From the sequence record PP434423.1: a DNA stretch of 64,000 nt; one strand, given 5' to 3'. A program made the position numbers and the translations under genes. The DNA is from Escherichia phage 236Ecol005PP. Under the pieces are notes generated by a model. That model saw only the letters and a program-made list of their open reading frames with translations, ran no database searches and had not been told where the DNA came from. Shown here in pieces: positions 7,726 through 60,450 of the stretch (position 1 is the stretch's first letter; the number at the start of each line of letters is the position of its first letter).

Positions 7726-7755
7726 ATAGTATCACTACCCTATCTAAAAGTAAAC
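7726..7755 (-). promoter_or_regulatory. T4-type early promoter (-35 GTTTAC, -10 TACTAT) inside inverted repeat GATAGGG/CCCTATC
   Basis: GTTTAC-N18-TACTAT; 7-bp inverted repeat arms bracket the -10. Confidence 0.5.
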
Positions 7756-54995: not shown

Positions 54996-55960
54996 TGTAT
55001 TCTTTAGAGGAATTTAATAATCAAGCAATAAACGCAGATTTCCAACGTAATAATATGTTTAGCTGCGTTTTTGCGACAACTCCATCAACTAAAAGCTCTT
55101 CGTTGATAAGTTCAATTAGCAACTTTTCTTATAATAACTTGGGCCTAAATTCAAATTGGTTAGGATTAACTCAAGGTGATATTAATCAGGGAATTACCAC
55201 GCTAATTACAGCTGGCACACAAAAACTAATAAGAAAATCAGGAGTCAGTAAATATCTCATTGGTGCCATGAGTCAACGTACTGTCCAGAGTTTATTAGGC
55301 TCATTTACAGTTGGTACATATTTAATTGACTTCTTTAACATGGCATATAACTCATCTGGATTGATGATATACTCTGTAAAAATGCCAGAGAATAGATTAT
55401 CCTATGAAACTGACTGGAACTATAATTCTCCTAATATTCGTATAACTGGGAGAGAATTAGACCCTTTGGTTATTTCATTTAGAATGGATTCAGAAGCTTG
55501 TAACTATCGTGCAATGCAAGACTGGGTTAACGCTGTTCAAGACCCAGTAACTGGATTGCGTGCTTTGCCACAAGATGTCGAGGCAGATATTCAGGTTAAT
55601 CTTCATTCTCGCAATGGATTGCCTCATACTGCGGTGATGTTCACCGGATGCATTCCAATATCAGTGAGCGCTCCTGAGCTATCATATGATGGAGATAACC
55701 AAATAACTACATTTGATGTTACTTTTGCGTACAGAGTGATGCAGGCTGGAGCAGTTGATAGGCAAGCTGCGCTTGAATGGCTTGAATCTGCTGCTATAAA
55801 TGGTATTCAAAGCGTTCTCGGAAATAGTGGAGGTGTTACTGGACTATCTAATTCGCTTTCACGACTTAGTAGATTAGGAGGAACTGCGGGAAGCATTTCA
55901 AACATTAATACTATGACGGGAATTGTCAACTCGCAAAGTAAAATATTAGGAGCAATATAA
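54995..55960 (+). CDS. 54: gp54 tail tube initiator
   Basis: 321 aa; gp48 paralogue; synteny. Confidence 0.9.
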   Translation: MYSLEEFNNQAINADFQRNNMFSCVFATTPSTKSSSLISSISNFSYNNLGLNSNWLGLTQGDINQGITTLITAGTQKLIRKSGVSKYLIGAMSQRTVQSLLGSFTVGTYLIDFFNMAYNSSGLMIYSVKMPENRLSYETDWNYNSPNIRITGRELDPLVISFRMDSEACNYRAMQDWVNAVQDPVTGLRALPQDVEADIQVNLHSRNGLPHTAVMFTGCIPISVSAPELSYDGDNQITTFDVTFAYRVMQAGAVDRQAALEWLESAAINGIQSVLGNSGGVTGLSNSLSRLSRLGGTAGSISNINTMTGIVNSQSKILGAI

Positions 55961-55964
55961 CAAT

Positions 55965-55993
55965 GGGGACCTTTCGGTCCCCATATTTTTATT
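55965..55993 (+). terminator. rho-independent terminator after gene 54
   Basis: GGGGACCTTTCGGTCCCC followed by ATATTTTTATTT. Confidence 0.7.
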
Positions 55994-56279
55994 TACGGAA
56001 TGAAATAAAAGCAGCAACTGAAGCAACTAAACTGTCTTCAATATAAACTTCAATTTTTACCGGAGCTTCTGACTCAAATTTACCTGTTACTACACCTTGG
56101 AAAATACTTTCAGTCTGTTCTGGCTTTGAAAAATTTTCAGAAGGAAAAATTCCGAACTTTTTATCTGTTCCAAAAATTTTGATAAATTCATCATAAACTG
56201 CTTCATTAAAAGCATTATCAGCAGGAATAACGCCTTCAACTACAAGTTCTTGACCTAAAAAGCGCAAAGAAGATTTCAT
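55989..56279 (-). CDS. hypothetical protein (alt.-3 position), 96 aa
   Basis: ATG start; SD GAGG 8 nt upstream. Confidence 0.6.
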   Translation of the reverse strand: MKSSLRFLGQELVVEGVIPADNAFNEAVYDEFIKIFGTDKKFGIFPSENFSKPEQTESIFQGVVTGKFESEAPVKIEVYIEDSLVASVAAFISFRK

Positions 56280-56287
56280 TTTGTGTT

Positions 56288-56330
56288 CCTCATGTTATGT
56301 CAGTAAGATTACTATAACACAACATGAGGG
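56288..56330 (-). promoter_or_regulatory. inverted repeat CCTCATGTT/AACATGAGG able to sequester the alt.-3 RBS
   Basis: 9-bp perfect inverted repeat; downstream arm includes SD GAGG. Confidence 0.45.
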
Positions 56331-56340
56331 ACTTGTAAAC
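56311..56340 (-). promoter_or_regulatory. T4-type early promoter (-35 GTTTAC, -10 TATAGT) embedded in the hairpin
   Basis: GTTTAC-N18-TATAGT on minus strand. Confidence 0.45.
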
Positions 56341-56515
56341 TACATTTTGAACTTTTTAGTACGCGTAATAGGCATGCGTCGATTTTATACTGTTTCATTG
56401 TTTGAAGAGCAGTATCAAAAACAGCATTAATGACACCAATTGGATTTCCGCCCAAGTTTTTAAGCTTAACTAATGATAGTTTCTCATTAACACCTATCAT
56501 TACGATATGCATCAT
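56312..56515 (-). CDS. alt N-terminal paralogue fragment, downstream part (similar to Alt residues ~64-125)
   Basis: MMHIV...KLKNLGGNPIGVINAVFDTALQTMKQYKIDACLLRVLKS aligns with Alt MMHIV...KLKGLGPSPINYINSVFTVAMQTMRQYKIDACMLRILKS. Confidence 0.6.
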   Translation of the reverse strand: MMHIVMIGVNEKLSLVKLKNLGGNPIGVINAVFDTALQTMKQYKIDACLLRVLKSSKCSLQVPHVVL

Positions 56516-56697
56516 TTTATCGCCCGGCTTAACGTTTTATTCGTATCACCGCCAGAGGTGTATGTACAAAATCTAAATCCAGGAAGCACACTTTCTTCAC
56601 CGGCTTGAATAGCAAAAATTTGAGGTATTTTATGCTTAGGATTTAAGTTAACAACCGGCGCCGAAGCGCCGTCAAATAATTCTGTAATAAGTTCCAT
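56512..56697 (-). CDS. alt N-terminal paralogue fragment, upstream part (similar to Alt residues 1-60)
   Basis: MELITELFD...KIPQIF...PGFRFCTYTSGGDTN aligns with Alt N-terminus; frameshifted relative to the next ORF. Confidence 0.6.
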   Translation of the reverse strand: MELITELFDGASAPVVNLNPKHKIPQIFAIQAGEESVLPGFRFCTYTSGGDTNKTLSRAIK

Positions 56698-56700
56698 GAT

Positions 56701-58752
56701 TTATCCTTGAACGAACTTGTAAGGCATGTTTGCAATATCTATGCAAGACGCAATAATTCCAAGAGATGATTCTGCTTTCTGTTTAACATTTGATGAAACA
56801 AACGATGCAAAGTCAACTCTATCTTCTATATCACCTGTCATTGTAACCAATTCACCAGTTTCCATTAAACGGTCACCGTCATAAATTACCGATTCGGTGA
56901 GTTCTTCTGTGGTCATAACTTCAGCTTGAATAAGCTTGTTGTTAGTTCTAACTGTTCCATCGTTGTAAGATGCATCAGTTATTTTATTAACTTTGACCAT
57001 TAATCCACGTGGCAAAATGACTTCCATTTCATTTGAAGGCGCTAAACTTCCACCGGGTAAAACAACATTGACTTTATCAGCCCCAGTAATAACCCATCCA
57101 ATTCCAACTAAATTATCGCTAGAATTTACAAGTCCTTCATCAGTTTTATCAATAGAAACACTTAAACGCTTTTCGTCTGGTAAAACACCCACAGATGAAT
57201 CAGTCATCCAAGTACCAAAAATATTTGGATATAATGATGTTGACACAAAGTTTCTAAAATAAAAAACTCGATTTTTTACCATTGCTTCGTATATTGAAGG
57301 TAACATTCGTTGTGAACGATACAAAGTAATACCTTTTGGTAATCGTTCACCATTTTTAAAGGCTGAATCTAAATTATCAATGGCTTGTTCTATTTCAGGT
57401 GCTGTTAAAATACTTGTACGCTCATCTGGATTATATAATCCCAAAAGAGCATTATTCATGTCTACATATCCTGAACCTACATATTCACGAATTCCGCGTT
57501 TTTGCGCTGGTGTGTATTTAGATGAATCTTTATTTTCGACTATAGGATGTAATGACCATCCAGCGGTAAGAGCATATCCACGTAATTCTCTTCGAATAAT
57601 CTTTGTTTTTATTGCATTCCAAGAATTTTGTACTAACTCATTTGCAGCATCTTGGTTTAAATGCGAATGTCTGTTAATATTTCTTTCAAACCAAGCACCT
57701 TTATATTTTTCTAAAGTATCATCGACGATAGAAGCAATAGTTTCTAAAGTTTTTATTGAAGTAATAGATTCTTTTCGTAATTTTTCTAAAGCTTTATTTT
57801 TTATTTCTGCATTAATAATGGATTCTTTATCTTCAGGAATTATAGAAGCTTCTCTGAATGCCATCCCAGCTGTAACACTGCTAAGAGCATTCTCTAATGC
57901 AAATCCTGAAGTAGAAATAACAGTTAATTCGTTAGCATCAGAAATTAAAGGCGCGTCGGCGGGTTTATTTAATTCTGCTGCTGAAGCCTCAAATTTTTGA
58001 AACATTGGTGTTTCAAATCTAGAAGATTCCAATGACTGACTTTGTGCAATTGCTCTACGGGAAATTTTAACTTTAACAATAACAGCTTGGTCAGAACGTT
58101 TATCATTTTCTTGCGCAATAGATGCAGCAATTGCCTCATTTTTAGTTACTTGAGCTCCAGTATCTTTATTGATATAAACATCACCGACCTTCGATTCAAC
58201 TTTAGTAAAGAGCTCGGTGCTAATTTCCGGAACTCCTGGAATGTCTTCTAGTGATACATTTTTGCGATGTATAAGAATATATGCATACTTTTTATCGTAA
58301 TCCCAGAGTTCCTTAAGAAGGACGTATCTGCCACCTGAACGACTGCGGATAAGTCTATCAGCAATAACTTGAATTTGTCGAGCTTGACCAGCAGTTTTAG
58401 ACTTAAGAATACGAAGCATGCAGGCATCAATTTTATACTGACGCATCGTTTGCATCGCAACAGTAAAAACTGAATTGATGTAATTAATTGGGCTTGGACC
58501 GAGACCTTTTAATTTAGCAATTGAACCTTTAGCAGTTAATGTAAAAGGAACGATGTGCATCATTTTATCGCCCATCTTTAAATCACGGTTAGTATCACCT
58601 CCAGATGTATAAGTACATAAACGAAAGCCTGGTTGTTCTATTGCGTCATCAACATGAACTGAAAAAATTTGTGGTATTTTCTTCTTTGGATACAAATTTG
58701 TAATCGGAAGAGTAGTATTTTCGTCAAATAATTCTGTAATAAGTTCCATCAT
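56701..58752 (-). CDS. alt: Alt ADP-ribosyltransferase (virion-packaged)
   Basis: 683 aa; position between 54 and 30 and length as T4 Alt; two adjacent ATG starts. Confidence 0.85.
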   Translation of the reverse strand: MMELITELFDENTTLPITNLYPKKKIPQIFSVHVDDAIEQPGFRLCTYTSGGDTNRDLKMGDKMMHIVPFTLTAKGSIAKLKGLGPSPINYINSVFTVAMQTMRQYKIDACMLRILKSKTAGQARQIQVIADRLIRSRSGGRYVLLKELWDYDKKYAYILIHRKNVSLEDIPGVPEISTELFTKVESKVGDVYINKDTGAQVTKNEAIAASIAQENDKRSDQAVIVKVKISRRAIAQSQSLESSRFETPMFQKFEASAAELNKPADAPLISDANELTVISTSGFALENALSSVTAGMAFREASIIPEDKESIINAEIKNKALEKLRKESITSIKTLETIASIVDDTLEKYKGAWFERNINRHSHLNQDAANELVQNSWNAIKTKIIRRELRGYALTAGWSLHPIVENKDSSKYTPAQKRGIREYVGSGYVDMNNALLGLYNPDERTSILTAPEIEQAIDNLDSAFKNGERLPKGITLYRSQRMLPSIYEAMVKNRVFYFRNFVSTSLYPNIFGTWMTDSSVGVLPDEKRLSVSIDKTDEGLVNSSDNLVGIGWVITGADKVNVVLPGGSLAPSNEMEVILPRGLMVKVNKITDASYNDGTVRTNNKLIQAEVMTTEELTESVIYDGDRLMETGELVTMTGDIEDRVDFASFVSSNVKQKAESSLGIIASCIDIANMPYKFVQG

Positions 58753-58772
58753 ATCCTCTCTAGTGTTTATTC

Positions 58773-58780
58773 TATTTATA
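58773..58780 (-). promoter_or_regulatory. late promoter TATAAATA upstream of alt
   Basis: minus TATAAATA 21 nt upstream of alt ATG. Confidence 0.55.
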
Positions 58781-58786
58781 AAATTA

Positions 58787-58803
58787 AAGGCCCGAAGGCC
58801 TTT
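58787..58803 (-). terminator. hairpin AAGGCCTTCGGGCCTT between gene 30 operon and alt
   Basis: GC stem with TTCG loop overlapping the stop of ORF 58802-58990. Confidence 0.4.
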
Positions 58804-58990
58804 AATAATCTAATGGTAAGAGAGTACGATATATTTCAAACTTTGGCCCTTTTTCATAGGCATCAAATGTTTCTGAAAATTTATTATAAGCATATGCATC
58901 TACAAATTCGAGAATGATTTGTGATACAGAAGTAGAAACATCTCCACCTTCTTTTTGAGCAATGACAATTGTTTCTAAGTAAGCTTTCAT
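58802..58990 (-). CDS. hypothetical protein, 62 aa, translationally coupled to ligase
   Basis: ATG overlaps gene 30 stop (ATGA). Confidence 0.55.
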   Translation of the reverse strand: MKAYLETIVIAQKEGGDVSTSVSQIILEFVDAYAYNKFSETFDAYEKGPKFEIYRTLLPLDY

Positions 58991-60450
58991 AGACCAGTTA
59001 CCTCATGAAAATCGCCAAATACATCCTCGAATGTATTAGCTTTAGTTTTATCTTCACGTAAACGAATCGCAATCGGAAGAAATAATTTAACGTAATCAGT
59101 GCGGCCATCAGATTTTAACCAACCATTGCATTCGCACTCTAGAATTTTTCCAATATAATAATTTTGGTTTTCCATAATGCGAGTACGGTCAAGTTCATGC
59201 GATTTTACACCGGCTTTATCTTTTAAGCCTGAACCAGCATTTACTTTAATTTTTCCACACTCTGACTCAAGAATAAATCCACCTGCTTTAGTAGGGTCTT
59301 TACGGTGAGGATAAATTCCTACAATTTTTAAATCAACATCAATTACTTCTTTAAATTTATAGAGATTTTTTGAACGAGCATTTTCCCATAATCCATCGAT
59401 ATTTTTGAGAATAATACCTTCAAGACCTTGGTCAATATACTTTTTATAAATTACCTTAGCTTCATCTAGGTTATTTACTACCTGGTTTTCAATTAAAATT
59501 ACTTTATCATAGCCTGATGTCATTTGTTCTAGTTTAGAAAAACGTACATCATATTTCAAACGAAATGCAGGAAGACCGTATATTTCTACCAACGGGACAT
59601 AATCCCAGACCTGAAACTTCATGCATTGAGCTTCTTTTTCAGAAATGGTTCCCTTTAAAGATTTATTGGCGATGCCATTAGATGCAGTACGTGATTCAGC
59701 TACTTCTGTGAAGTCTTTAACTTTGCTGTTTTCAGGATGAGCATCAAAAAGAAAATCTAGGCCTTCTGGCTCCTTTTTAACTTGCTCATGGTATACCAAT
59801 TCGCCATCAATTAACACACCTTCTGGATGAATCTGGCGGGCTTCAGCAGTCATTTTGATTAACTCTTCCTTAAGAAGATCTAATCCTAGATATTCATTAC
59901 CGGCTCGTGATAAAAGACGAACATCATCTAATTCATCACCTCGGACTTCAGCAAAACACCGAGCTCCATCTGCTTTTAACTGTGCAAAGGCTGGAAACTT
60001 AATATTCTTATTAATGCCTTTTTCATCATAAGAACTTGCCAGCATTTGAGGTTGTTCAGGAATTAAACCTGACCAAACTTTGTTTGCAATAGATACTGAA
60101 GCACCGCATTCAAGGTCTCGCATCATAACTCGACGCAAAACTTCAACATCATTCTTTTTACCATCAGTGATATATCCAGTCAATTCCTCAATTGCAGCAT
60201 TTCCAGTCAATTTCCGAGTAGCTAATGTGAATTCAATGAAGTCAAGCATATCGGTAAGAGTCAACATTCCAAAACTCTGGGTAGTAATACCAGGTTTAGG
60301 CCATTTCTTGATATAATACTGCAACCCACGAGAATAAGTCAGACGATATACTCGTTTAAGCAATTCATTATCTTTATTCTTTTCAAGAATTGCTTGCTTC
60401 TGCTTAGTTGAACCAATAGATGCTATTTCGTTCAGAATTTTAAGAATCAT
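58987..60450 (-). CDS. 30: ATP-dependent DNA ligase
   Basis: MILKILNEIASIGSTKQKQAILEKNKDNELLKRVYRL... and KADG motif; 487 aa, T4 DNA ligase. Confidence 0.97.
   Translation of the reverse strand: MILKILNEIASIGSTKQKQAILEKNKDNELLKRVYRLTYSRGLQYYIKKWPKPGITTQSFGMLTLTDMLDFIEFTLATRKLTGNAAIEELTGYITDGKKNDVEVLRRVMMRDLECGASVSIANKVWSGLIPEQPQMLASSYDEKGINKNIKFPAFAQLKADGARCFAEVRGDELDDVRLLSRAGNEYLGLDLLKEELIKMTAEARQIHPEGVLIDGELVYHEQVKKEPEGLDFLFDAHPENSKVKDFTEVAESRTASNGIANKSLKGTISEKEAQCMKFQVWDYVPLVEIYGLPAFRLKYDVRFSKLEQMTSGYDKVILIENQVVNNLDEAKVIYKKYIDQGLEGIILKNIDGLWENARSKNLYKFKEVIDVDLKIVGIYPHRKDPTKAGGFILESECGKIKVNAGSGLKDKAGVKSHELDRTRIMENQNYYIGKILECECNGWLKSDGRTDYVKLFLPIAIRLREDKTKANTFEDVFGDFHEVTGL

Follow-up and report, generated by a model that had tools for sequence, protein, structure and literature searches.

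The 64,000-nucleotide (nt) stretch of Escherichia phage 236Ecol005PP analyzed here (record PP434423.1; referred to as the window) carries a strong early-type promoter and an inverted repeat on its minus strand, directly upstream of the gene alt.-3. Because the promoter sits inside a hairpin that hides the alt.-3 ribosome-binding site, only RNA started at that promoter is probably translated. The original prediction, made from the sequence alone, had placed the open reading frame (ORF) at 55989-56279 at the alt.-3 position, and this ORF is indeed the orthologue of T4 alt.-3, encoding a 96-amino-acid DUF5498 protein on the minus strand. The locus is a T4-like (Tequatrovirus) segment with about 97% identity to T4 and 99.9% identity to phage Pu-Krd-SF4 over the alt.-3 locus. 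The local order, with which the T4 annotation agrees, is gp48 and gp54 on the plus strand, a terminator, and then alt.-3, alt.-2, alt.-1, and alt on the minus strand. The terminator scan identified a bidirectional intrinsic terminator at the alt.-3/gene 54 junction (55963-55984, both strands). The upstream late gene alt (56701-58752, minus strand) encodes a 683-amino-acid ADP-ribosyltransferase. Between it and alt.-3 lie alt.-1 and alt.-2 (56312-56697, minus strand), which overlap each other as ATGA and are what is left of the N-terminal part of a second alt paralogue, a duplication also noted in the T4 annotation.

The minus strand upstream of alt.-3 reads GTTTAC (56340-56335), AAGTCCCTCATGTTGTGT, TATAGT (56316-56311), AATCTT, A (56304), CTG, ACATAACATGAGGAAC, ACAAA, and the ATG at 56279. 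GTTTAC (positions -36 to -31) is a -35 hexamer of the T4 early-promoter type. The -10 hexamer TATAGT, which is TATAAT in some relatives, opens the loop of the hairpin. Promoter geometry places the predicted transcription start at A56304, the seventh nucleotide past the -10, which would give a 25-nt leader without the 5' arm. The 18-nt spacer, the TGn extended -10, and the A-rich upstream tract match the architecture of T4 early (sigma-70) promoters, for which a UP/-35/TGn/-10 consensus has been described (Nolan 2006; Hinton 2010). The site is the top sigma-70 match within 55700-59200, and its RB69 orthologue was predicted to be an early promoter (Pe:125323; Nolan 2006). No T4 transcription-start dataset was found in the literature.

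The 9-bp perfect inverted repeat reported in the original prediction, CCTCATGTT (56329-56321) and AACATGAGG (56296-56288) on the minus strand, was confirmed, with the SD GAGG in its downstream arm, and it extends to a 16-nt repeat. As RNA, the arms form 15 pairs, comprising 14 Watson-Crick pairs and one G.U pair, together with one C.A mismatch. The 5' arm GUCCCUCAUGUUGUGU (56317-56332, minus strand) is the anti-SD strand and fills the promoter spacer, with its final 3 nt forming the TGn of the extended -10. The 3' arm ACAUAACAUGAGGAAC (56285-56300, minus strand) holds the SD GAGG (56291-56288), 8 nt before the ATG. The prediction had described GTTTAC-N18-TATAGT as lying between the arms. The motif is present and is the best sigma-70 match, but its placement differs from that description, as the -35 sits 5' of the 5' arm, the 5' arm lies in the spacer, and the 16-nt loop contains only the -10 and the predicted +1. 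The predicted +1 is 13 nt 3' of the 5' arm, so that promoter-initiated RNA would lack the 5' strand of the hairpin.

Several other assignments of this site were considered and rejected. A late promoter was rejected because the sequence there (TATAGTAA) and the -35 are of the early type and not TATAAATA. A MotA-dependent middle promoter was rejected because the box (a/t)(a/t)TGCTT(t/c)A centered at -30 is absent, the -30 region reading ACAAGTCCC; the site is also not in the list of mapped T4 middle promoters. A RegB site (GGAG in the SD, followed by A-rich sequence) was rejected because the SD context UGAGGAAC does not contain GGAG. The hairpin was likewise rejected as an intrinsic terminator, since the stem is followed by ACACAAAAUGAAAUC with no U tract and the terminator scan did not flag it. 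An Rfam scan of 55900-56900 returned no relevant family, and its two subthreshold matches were chance hits elsewhere in the region.

Folding of the 76-nt RNA gave -23.4 kcal/mol with a z score of -4.5, and none of 200 shuffled sequences was as stable. The hairpin was retained in folds of 126-nt and 180-nt contexts. Composition-preserving shuffles of the spacer reached 9 bp in 2 of 1,000 cases against the translation start region and in 2 of 2,000 against the 50 nt after the -10. The alt.-3 inverted repeat is therefore not due to chance. Unpairing positions -15 to +5 relative to the alt.-3 start costs 18.2 kcal/mol in RNA initiated upstream (long RNA) and 2.1 kcal/mol in RNA from the predicted +1 (short RNA); the corresponding values for T4-like variants are 16 to 20 and 1 to 3 kcal/mol. 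We ranked the 60 SD-bearing gene starts of the window by the energy needed to unpair the same positions in a context of -120 to +40. The median was 6.5 kcal/mol and the 95th percentile was 13.0 kcal/mol, with alt.-3 ranking first (18.2 kcal/mol), gene e second (16.4 kcal/mol), and denV third (14.9 kcal/mol). The original prediction had named these three genes as sharing one logic; they are the three most occluded of the 60 starts, and denV has the same design as alt.-3, but gene e uses late promoters and delays translation. A second possible pairing was also seen, in which the 5' arm (56316-56327) pairs with AACACAAAAUGA across the alt.-3 start codon (56276-56287; 12 nt, 92% complementary). 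Read-through RNA may thus have two mutually exclusive blocks to initiation.

Read-through RNA would probably come from the late promoter of alt, TATAAATA (58773-58780, minus strand), which was read directly from the sequence. The terminator scan found no minus-strand terminator-like site downstream of alt before 55984-55963, and alt.-1/alt.-2 RNA has been detected in T4, both of which bear on whether transcripts cross the element. Upstream of this promoter, a hairpin with a GC stem, a UUCG loop, and a T-rich tail (about 58803-58781) sits after alt.1. It was missing from the terminator-scan output, and a terminator was predicted by TransTerm at the equivalent alt.1/alt junction of RB69. In T4, alt.-3 is early in both RNA and protein, alt.-1 and alt.-2 RNAs are of the middle class with no protein detected, and alt RNA is of the middle class with Alt protein late (Wolfram-Schauerte 2022, Table S2). 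For T4, these classes support a distinct early transcription unit whose start lies between alt.-2 and alt.-3, since alt.-3 is early in RNA and protein while the RNAs of alt.-1 and alt.-2 are middle. The same data class gene e as "protein late, RNA early," the pattern characteristic of its known hairpin.

On balance we consider it probable, judging by sequence, modeled energies, and analogy, that the element is an early-gene cassette that ties alt.-3 translation to the promoter of origin and confines Alt.-3 synthesis to the early period. The cassette would begin at the stop codon that ends the upstream gene and extend as far as the start codon of alt.-3, with the spacer carrying the complement of the alt.-3 SD region. 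Early in infection, host RNA polymerase would start at about A56304, the start predicted from the promoter, and produce an mRNA of about 340 nt that lacks the 5' arm and leaves the ribosome-binding site open, so that Alt.-3 is made. Later, RNA from the alt late promoter would run through alt.-1 and alt.-2 and through the by then silent early promoter. This long RNA, containing both arms, would be expected from the calculated energies and from analogy with gene e to fold, bury the SD, and leave alt.-3 untranslated.

We compared the locus across ten lineages (Tequatro-, Dhaka-, Mosig-, Marfa-, Kanagawa-, Karam-, Gelderland-, and Kagamiyamavirus, phage Ursula, and a VR25-type lineage). GTTTAC-N18-TAnnnT is positionally invariant in all 10 genera checked, with the stop codon of alt abutting or overlapping GTTTAC. 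Strong occlusion at alt.-3 was found only in Tequatrovirus (14 to 20 kcal/mol on long RNA versus 1 to 3 kcal/mol on short RNA) and in Kosakonia phage 305. The latter has a 9-bp arm of unrelated sequence in the spacer, GAATGAACG, whose pairing partner, CGTTCATTC, spans the start codon (17.7 versus 4.3 kcal/mol), and this is, as judged from the sequence, an independent version of alt.-3 occlusion. The -10 of phage 305 lies within the 5' strand of a longer composite stem. Within Tequatrovirus, 25 sequences represented 14 haplotypes over the cassette and its flanks, and the cassette was kept in all 25. Seven arm positions vary among the 14 haplotypes, and at five of these positions pairing is kept or improved, including a compensatory series of C-G, U.G, and U-A. 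In an 11-sequence Tequatrovirus alignment, 93.8% of stem cells were paired. As to conservation in relatives, which the original prediction set as a test, the occluding arm is present in Tequatrovirus and, as an independent version, in Kosakonia phage 305, and five of seven genera keep spacer-SD pairing at alc with different sequences; at alt.-3, most of the remaining genera lack the arm. Pattern scans of IMG/VR and metagenome contigs and protein-guided locus searches yielded few further T4-like loci and many chance matches.

Most genera have a short dyad wholly within the alt.-3 promoter spacer, such as CCACA-AGGA-TGTGG. The stems of these dyads covary between genera (GCAC..GTGC, ATCCAC..GTGGAT, ACATCC..GGATGT, and ACGCAC..GTGTGT), and the loop always contains GGA. 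Spacers of the CCACA-AGGA-TGTGG type recur at three T4 early promoters (2458, 50973, and 167086). The alt.-3 leaders of Dhakavirus, Mosigvirus, and Kagamiyamavirus contain anti-SD stretches of 5 to 6 nt between the -10 and the +1; these add only 3 to 5 kcal/mol and were set aside as near chance. An unrelated gene in three Marfa-like contigs carries GTTTAC-N18-TATAGT followed by ACTCCT, which is complementary to its SD AGGAGT, placing the anti-SD between the -10 and the +1.

The region immediately upstream of the promoter is an A-rich, UP-like segment, CTAAAAAGTTCAAAATGTA (56341-56359, minus strand), which preserves the 3' end (codons ..KKFKM*) of the second paralogue of alt in its ancestral form; CTAAAAAGTTCAAAATGTAG retains these final codons. 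Homology breaks at 56359, as approximately 400 Tequatrovirus records, out of 502 related records, match the window only from 56359 onward, and in these the paralogue is intact. Most Tequatroviruses have such an intact paralogue, and its stop codon overlaps the -35 and lies 8 nt before the 5' arm. A possible outer stem (56359-56346 with 56268-56255), of which the UP-like segment is the 5' half, is weakened by a synonymous change in T4 and is possibly incidental.

The alt.-3 cassette has a copy elsewhere. When 148.5 kb of T4 was scanned for GTTTAC-N18-TAnnnT, the spacer AAGTCCCTCGTGTTGTGT with TATAGT was found twice, before alt.-3 and before alc. The two T4 sites have 55 bp in common, from GTTTAC to GAGGA, with one mismatch and with unrelated flanks. 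The alc cassette of T4 (Pe about 136336) reads GTTTAC AAGTCCCTCGTGTTGTGT TATAGT AGTCTTACTGACATAACATGAGGA, with arms as in the alt.-3 cassette, and requires 20.1 kcal/mol on long RNA and 3.3 kcal/mol on short RNA to open. It forms the same hairpin but between different upstream (rnlA) and downstream (alc) genes. Phage Pu-Krd-SF4, the nearest relative of the window, has the same copy before alc, and in many Tequatroviruses megablast matched the 54-nt core to a second intergenic site, one that carries no annotation. The 64-kb window contains a single copy, at alt.-3, and alc lies outside it.

Unlike at alt.-3, the pairing of spacer with SD is kept across genera at alc, where the design is of long standing. 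A cross-genus MAFFT and RNAalifold alignment misplaced the arms and was uninformative because they shift register relative to the promoter; per-lineage folds and a matrix of cognate and noncognate duplexes were used in its place. In these folds the spacer pairs with its own SD at alc in five of seven genera, by different sequences. Besides T4, these are EcS1 (AUCCUCAUUUUGUUG with CAACAAAAUGAGGAU, 15 bp; 9.9 versus 2.9 kcal/mol for long and short RNA), Dhakavirus (UCUCCUCAU with AUGAGGAGA; 8.8 versus 1.1 kcal/mol), Karamvirus (UCUCCAUUUGGUU with AACCAAAUGGAGA; 19.6 versus 1.7 kcal/mol), and Jiaodavirus (AUCCUCAUCAG with CUGAUGAGGAU; 13.4 versus 3.5 kcal/mol). In the duplex matrix the cognate pair ranked first for 6 of 11 spacers, with substantial cross-reaction through the shared SD.

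The stem at alc is two to three pairs longer than that at alt.-3, since AAGUCC pairs perfectly with the alc leader GGACUU and imperfectly with the alt.-3 leader. As this segment fits the alc leader better and other genera have a different ancestral alt.-3 spacer, the cassette was, by its sequence, most likely copied from alc to the alt.-3 locus in a Tequatrovirus ancestor, via recombination at the shared -35 and SD motifs. Such a transfer, together with the unrelated flanks of the near-identical 55 bp, the copy before alc in Pu-Krd-SF4, the weaker alt.-3 occlusion of other genera, and documented shuffling of similar promoter cassettes (the PeSLs considered below), would also suit a passive passenger, a hairpin selected at alc and only tolerated at alt.-3. 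We regard this explanation as unlikely, because the cassette is kept in all 25 Tequatrovirus sequences, with one compensatory change, and because Kosakonia phage 305 evolved alt.-3 occlusion independently. Moreover, both arms travel within the cassette, so that a physical effect on read-through RNA would exist whether or not it was selected.

The same design, GTTTAC-N18-TAnnnT with an arm in the spacer, occurs at denV and gene 30.8, where the arm sequences are unrelated to those at alt.-3 and the cassette is thus not the same one. At denV (945-888, minus strand), GTTTAC is followed by TTCCTCCAAG, TACTAT, and then CTTGGAGGAA, and a 10-bp spacer arm is complementary to the gene's own SD region. 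Opening costs 14.6 kcal/mol on long RNA and 1.6 kcal/mol on short RNA, a difference of 13.0 kcal/mol. The denV arms of T4 differ from those of the window and are likewise 10-bp perfect (UCUCCUGUAG with CUACAGGAGA, listed also as TCTCCTGTAG with CTACAGGAGA), which indicates multisite compensation between close relatives. At gene 30.8 (63579-63522, minus strand), an early promoter following a terminator has an 8-bp spacer arm (TTCCTTTGT, then TAGTAT, then ACAAAGGAG). The spacer TCCTTTGT pairs with the SD region ACAAAGGA, and opening costs 11.9 versus 0.1 kcal/mol, a difference of 11.8 kcal/mol. At the equivalent junction of RB69, both a terminator and an early promoter have been predicted. Since alt.-3, denV, and 30.8 use sigma-70 early promoters, unlike gene e, the timing would be reversed. 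The original prediction of a reusable module was borne out in that the design recurs at denV and 30.8, the 55-bp cassette stands before alc, and arm and SD region vary together at alc and denV.

At five of the eight canonical early promoters of the window, a repeat of 8 bp or longer links the spacer to the 50 nt that follow, compared with 1.9% of random positions; across T4 such repeats were found at 6 of 38 early promoters. Among 31 motif-defined T4 early promoters with an assigned downstream gene, about 7 showed roughly 10 kcal/mol or more of extra occlusion on the long RNA, namely, those of alt.-3, alc, nrdC.8, modB, regB, and 30.8 and one in the ndd region. Spacer arms that pair with the SD were found at denV, 30.8, and alc, but two of the five window repeats end at the +1 and not at the SD. 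As several repeats in T4 also do so, occlusion does not explain every such stem-loop.

Several such promoters were seen individually. In the window, the minus-strand early promoters at 7755 and 63187 have a 9-bp repeat (GATAGGGTA with TACCCTATC) and an 8-bp repeat (GGTACAGG with CCTGTACC), respectively, whose arms stand on either side of the -10; the 3' arm falls at the transcription start, not at the SD, and translation is not occluded. The T4 early promoters 55384 and 146875 have identical spacers, AAGCATAAAGCTTTATGG, with a perfect 7-bp palindrome and represent another repeated promoter cassette. The T4 early promoters 65799 (ipII), 57990, and 73939 (ipI) have repeats (14, 13, and 10 bp, respectively) that join the spacer to the region just past the -10, and none of these repeats reaches the SD. 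All three promoters lie within or close to the locus for internal proteins, at which shuffling mediated by conserved intergenic sequences has been reported. Gene 1 (9962-9907, minus strand) has a middle promoter with a MotA box (AATGCTTAA at -30), and opening its translation start takes 8.5 kcal/mol more on RNA initiated upstream than on RNA from this promoter.

The arms of these cassettes also bear on whether the element acts through RNA structure other than SD occlusion. PeSLs (promoter-early stem-loops) are intergenic units of T4-like phages consisting of an upstream stop codon, an A/T-rich region, a sigma-70 promoter, a stem-loop between the -35 and -10 or overlapping the -10, an SD, and an ATG (Arbiol 2010, PMC2839356). 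One RB49 stem-loop of this kind cut reporter expression like a strong terminator (Arbiol 2010, PMC2839356), and PeSLs were later extended to the T4/PST pair, with the stem-loops drawn upstream of the promoter (Comeau 2014, PMC4122927). The alt.-3 element fits the definition. It might attenuate or terminate alt transcription or shield processed alt mRNA at its 3' end, in which case the stem would include the SD only incidentally. The forms that leave the SD free at the same promoters, namely, the spacer dyads at alt.-3 in most genera and the -10-bracketing repeats at PEi26 alc and at 7755 and 63187 of the window, would agree with such a role. However, the stem lacks a U tract and was not flagged as a terminator, a canonical terminator lies 300 nt downstream, and the arms track the SD in five alc lineages and at denV, which a terminator or stabilizer would not need. 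A helix over the SD also blocks 30S binding regardless, and we think it improbable that an RNA-level role of this type accounts for the element. An element acting as DNA (an operator or a cruciform), or a chance repeat, is a very unlikely explanation. The arms do flank the -10 and +1 and could form a repressor site, but the denV, 30.8, alc, and alt.-3 cassettes of different phages share no arm sequence, each matching its own SD, while G.U pairs are tolerated and both the fold and the spacer shuffles exclude chance.

For the proposed restriction of alt.-3 translation to promoter-started RNA, a number of observations count on the other side. The T4 timing consists of classes only and comes from T4 rather than from this phage. 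Most other genera keep the alt.-3 promoter without strong occlusion (3 to 8 versus 2 to 4.5 kcal/mol for long and short RNA), so that occlusion is not essential to the alt.-3 locus. Two of the Tequatrovirus arm variants each break one pair, and covariation within Tequatrovirus was not significant, with 107 of 500 shuffles reaching the observed value and too little variation present. Stem-loops at related promoters also take topologies that do not touch the SD, and the conserved function may therefore be a different or additional one. Finally, in both the window and T4 the alt.-2 ORF spans the -35 and the entire 5' arm and stops in the loop (TAG at 56314-56312, 21 nt before the SD), so that any translation of alt.-2 would melt the hairpin. 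This arrangement, with the ATGA overlap of alt.-1 and alt.-2, could provide translational coupling, in which ribosomes ending alt.-2 in the loop unzip the hairpin and pass to alt.-3, making late alt.-3 translation proportional to that of alt.-2. We consider such coupling very unlikely, as most Tequatroviruses have an intact paralogue that stops 8 nt before the arm, Alt.-1 and Alt.-2 were undetected in T4 proteomics, and Alt.-3 is classed as early.

The core idea of the original prediction is partly supported at the level of sequence, thermodynamics, and comparison, and coupling to the promoter of origin is what we infer from the modeled folds. Beyond alt.-3, spacer-encoded anti-SD arms may be a general and mobile feature of T4-type early promoters, a proposal that we advance tentatively. 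A sizeable subset of early genes, in T4 including alc, alt.-3, denV, 30.8, regB, modB, and nrdC.8, would then have translation that depends on the promoter of origin and is shielded from delayed-early, middle, and late read-through RNA, with the arms spread by recombination at the -35 and SD motifs. If the proposed function of the alt.-3 cassette is correct, one small cassette solves a general problem of very dense genomes, namely, the mistimed translation to which an early gene is exposed when a late gene precedes it on the same strand. The mechanism of gene e would then also operate in the opposite temporal direction, and PeSL cassettes, so far regarded as promoter-terminator and recombination units, would gain a translational role. 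The 55-bp cassette would be a portable part linking translation to one promoter. It would also bear on when Alt.-3 is made, which is relevant to the CmdTAC defense system; Alt.-3 is nonessential, and C-terminal extensions of Alt.-3 allow T4 to escape this system.

For the T4 genes e, soc, 49, and I-TevI, it is established that long transcripts hide the ribosome-binding site in a structure within which a promoter fires (Uzan & Miller 2010, PMC3014915). The mechanism has been shown experimentally for e and I-TevI, the two cases whose internal promoter is described as late, and it is predicted for several genes encoding homing endonucleases; alt.-3, alc, denV, and 30.8 are not among the examples of that review. 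Like these genes, alt.-3 has its SD in a stable helix on upstream-initiated RNA, while the proximal transcript would lack the 5' strand, and gene e of the window has the same signature (16.4 kcal/mol to open). Unlike gene e, which has a gp55-dependent late promoter (TATAAATA) with no -35, alt.-3 has a sigma-70 early promoter with the 5' strand in the -35/-10 spacer. The predicted effect at alt.-3 is to stop translation from later read-through RNA, whereas at e it is to delay translation until late. The alt.-3 element also resembles the PeSLs, which are repeated in the genome and mediate modular shuffling (Arbiol 2010, PMC2839356; Comeau 2014, PMC4122927), in its intergenic layout from stop codon to ATG, its stem-loop arms flanking the -10, its second copy at alc, and its position adjoining the indel breakpoint at 56359. 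However, the authors of the PeSL studies assigned the stem-loops a role in termination or attenuation and in recombination, and the word "translation" is absent from the 2010 text, whereas at alt.-3 the 3' arm is the SD itself. The alt.-3 element would thus act in the manner of the gene e hairpin, a concept already published, but from an early promoter and with the opposite timing, and its construction is that of a PeSL.

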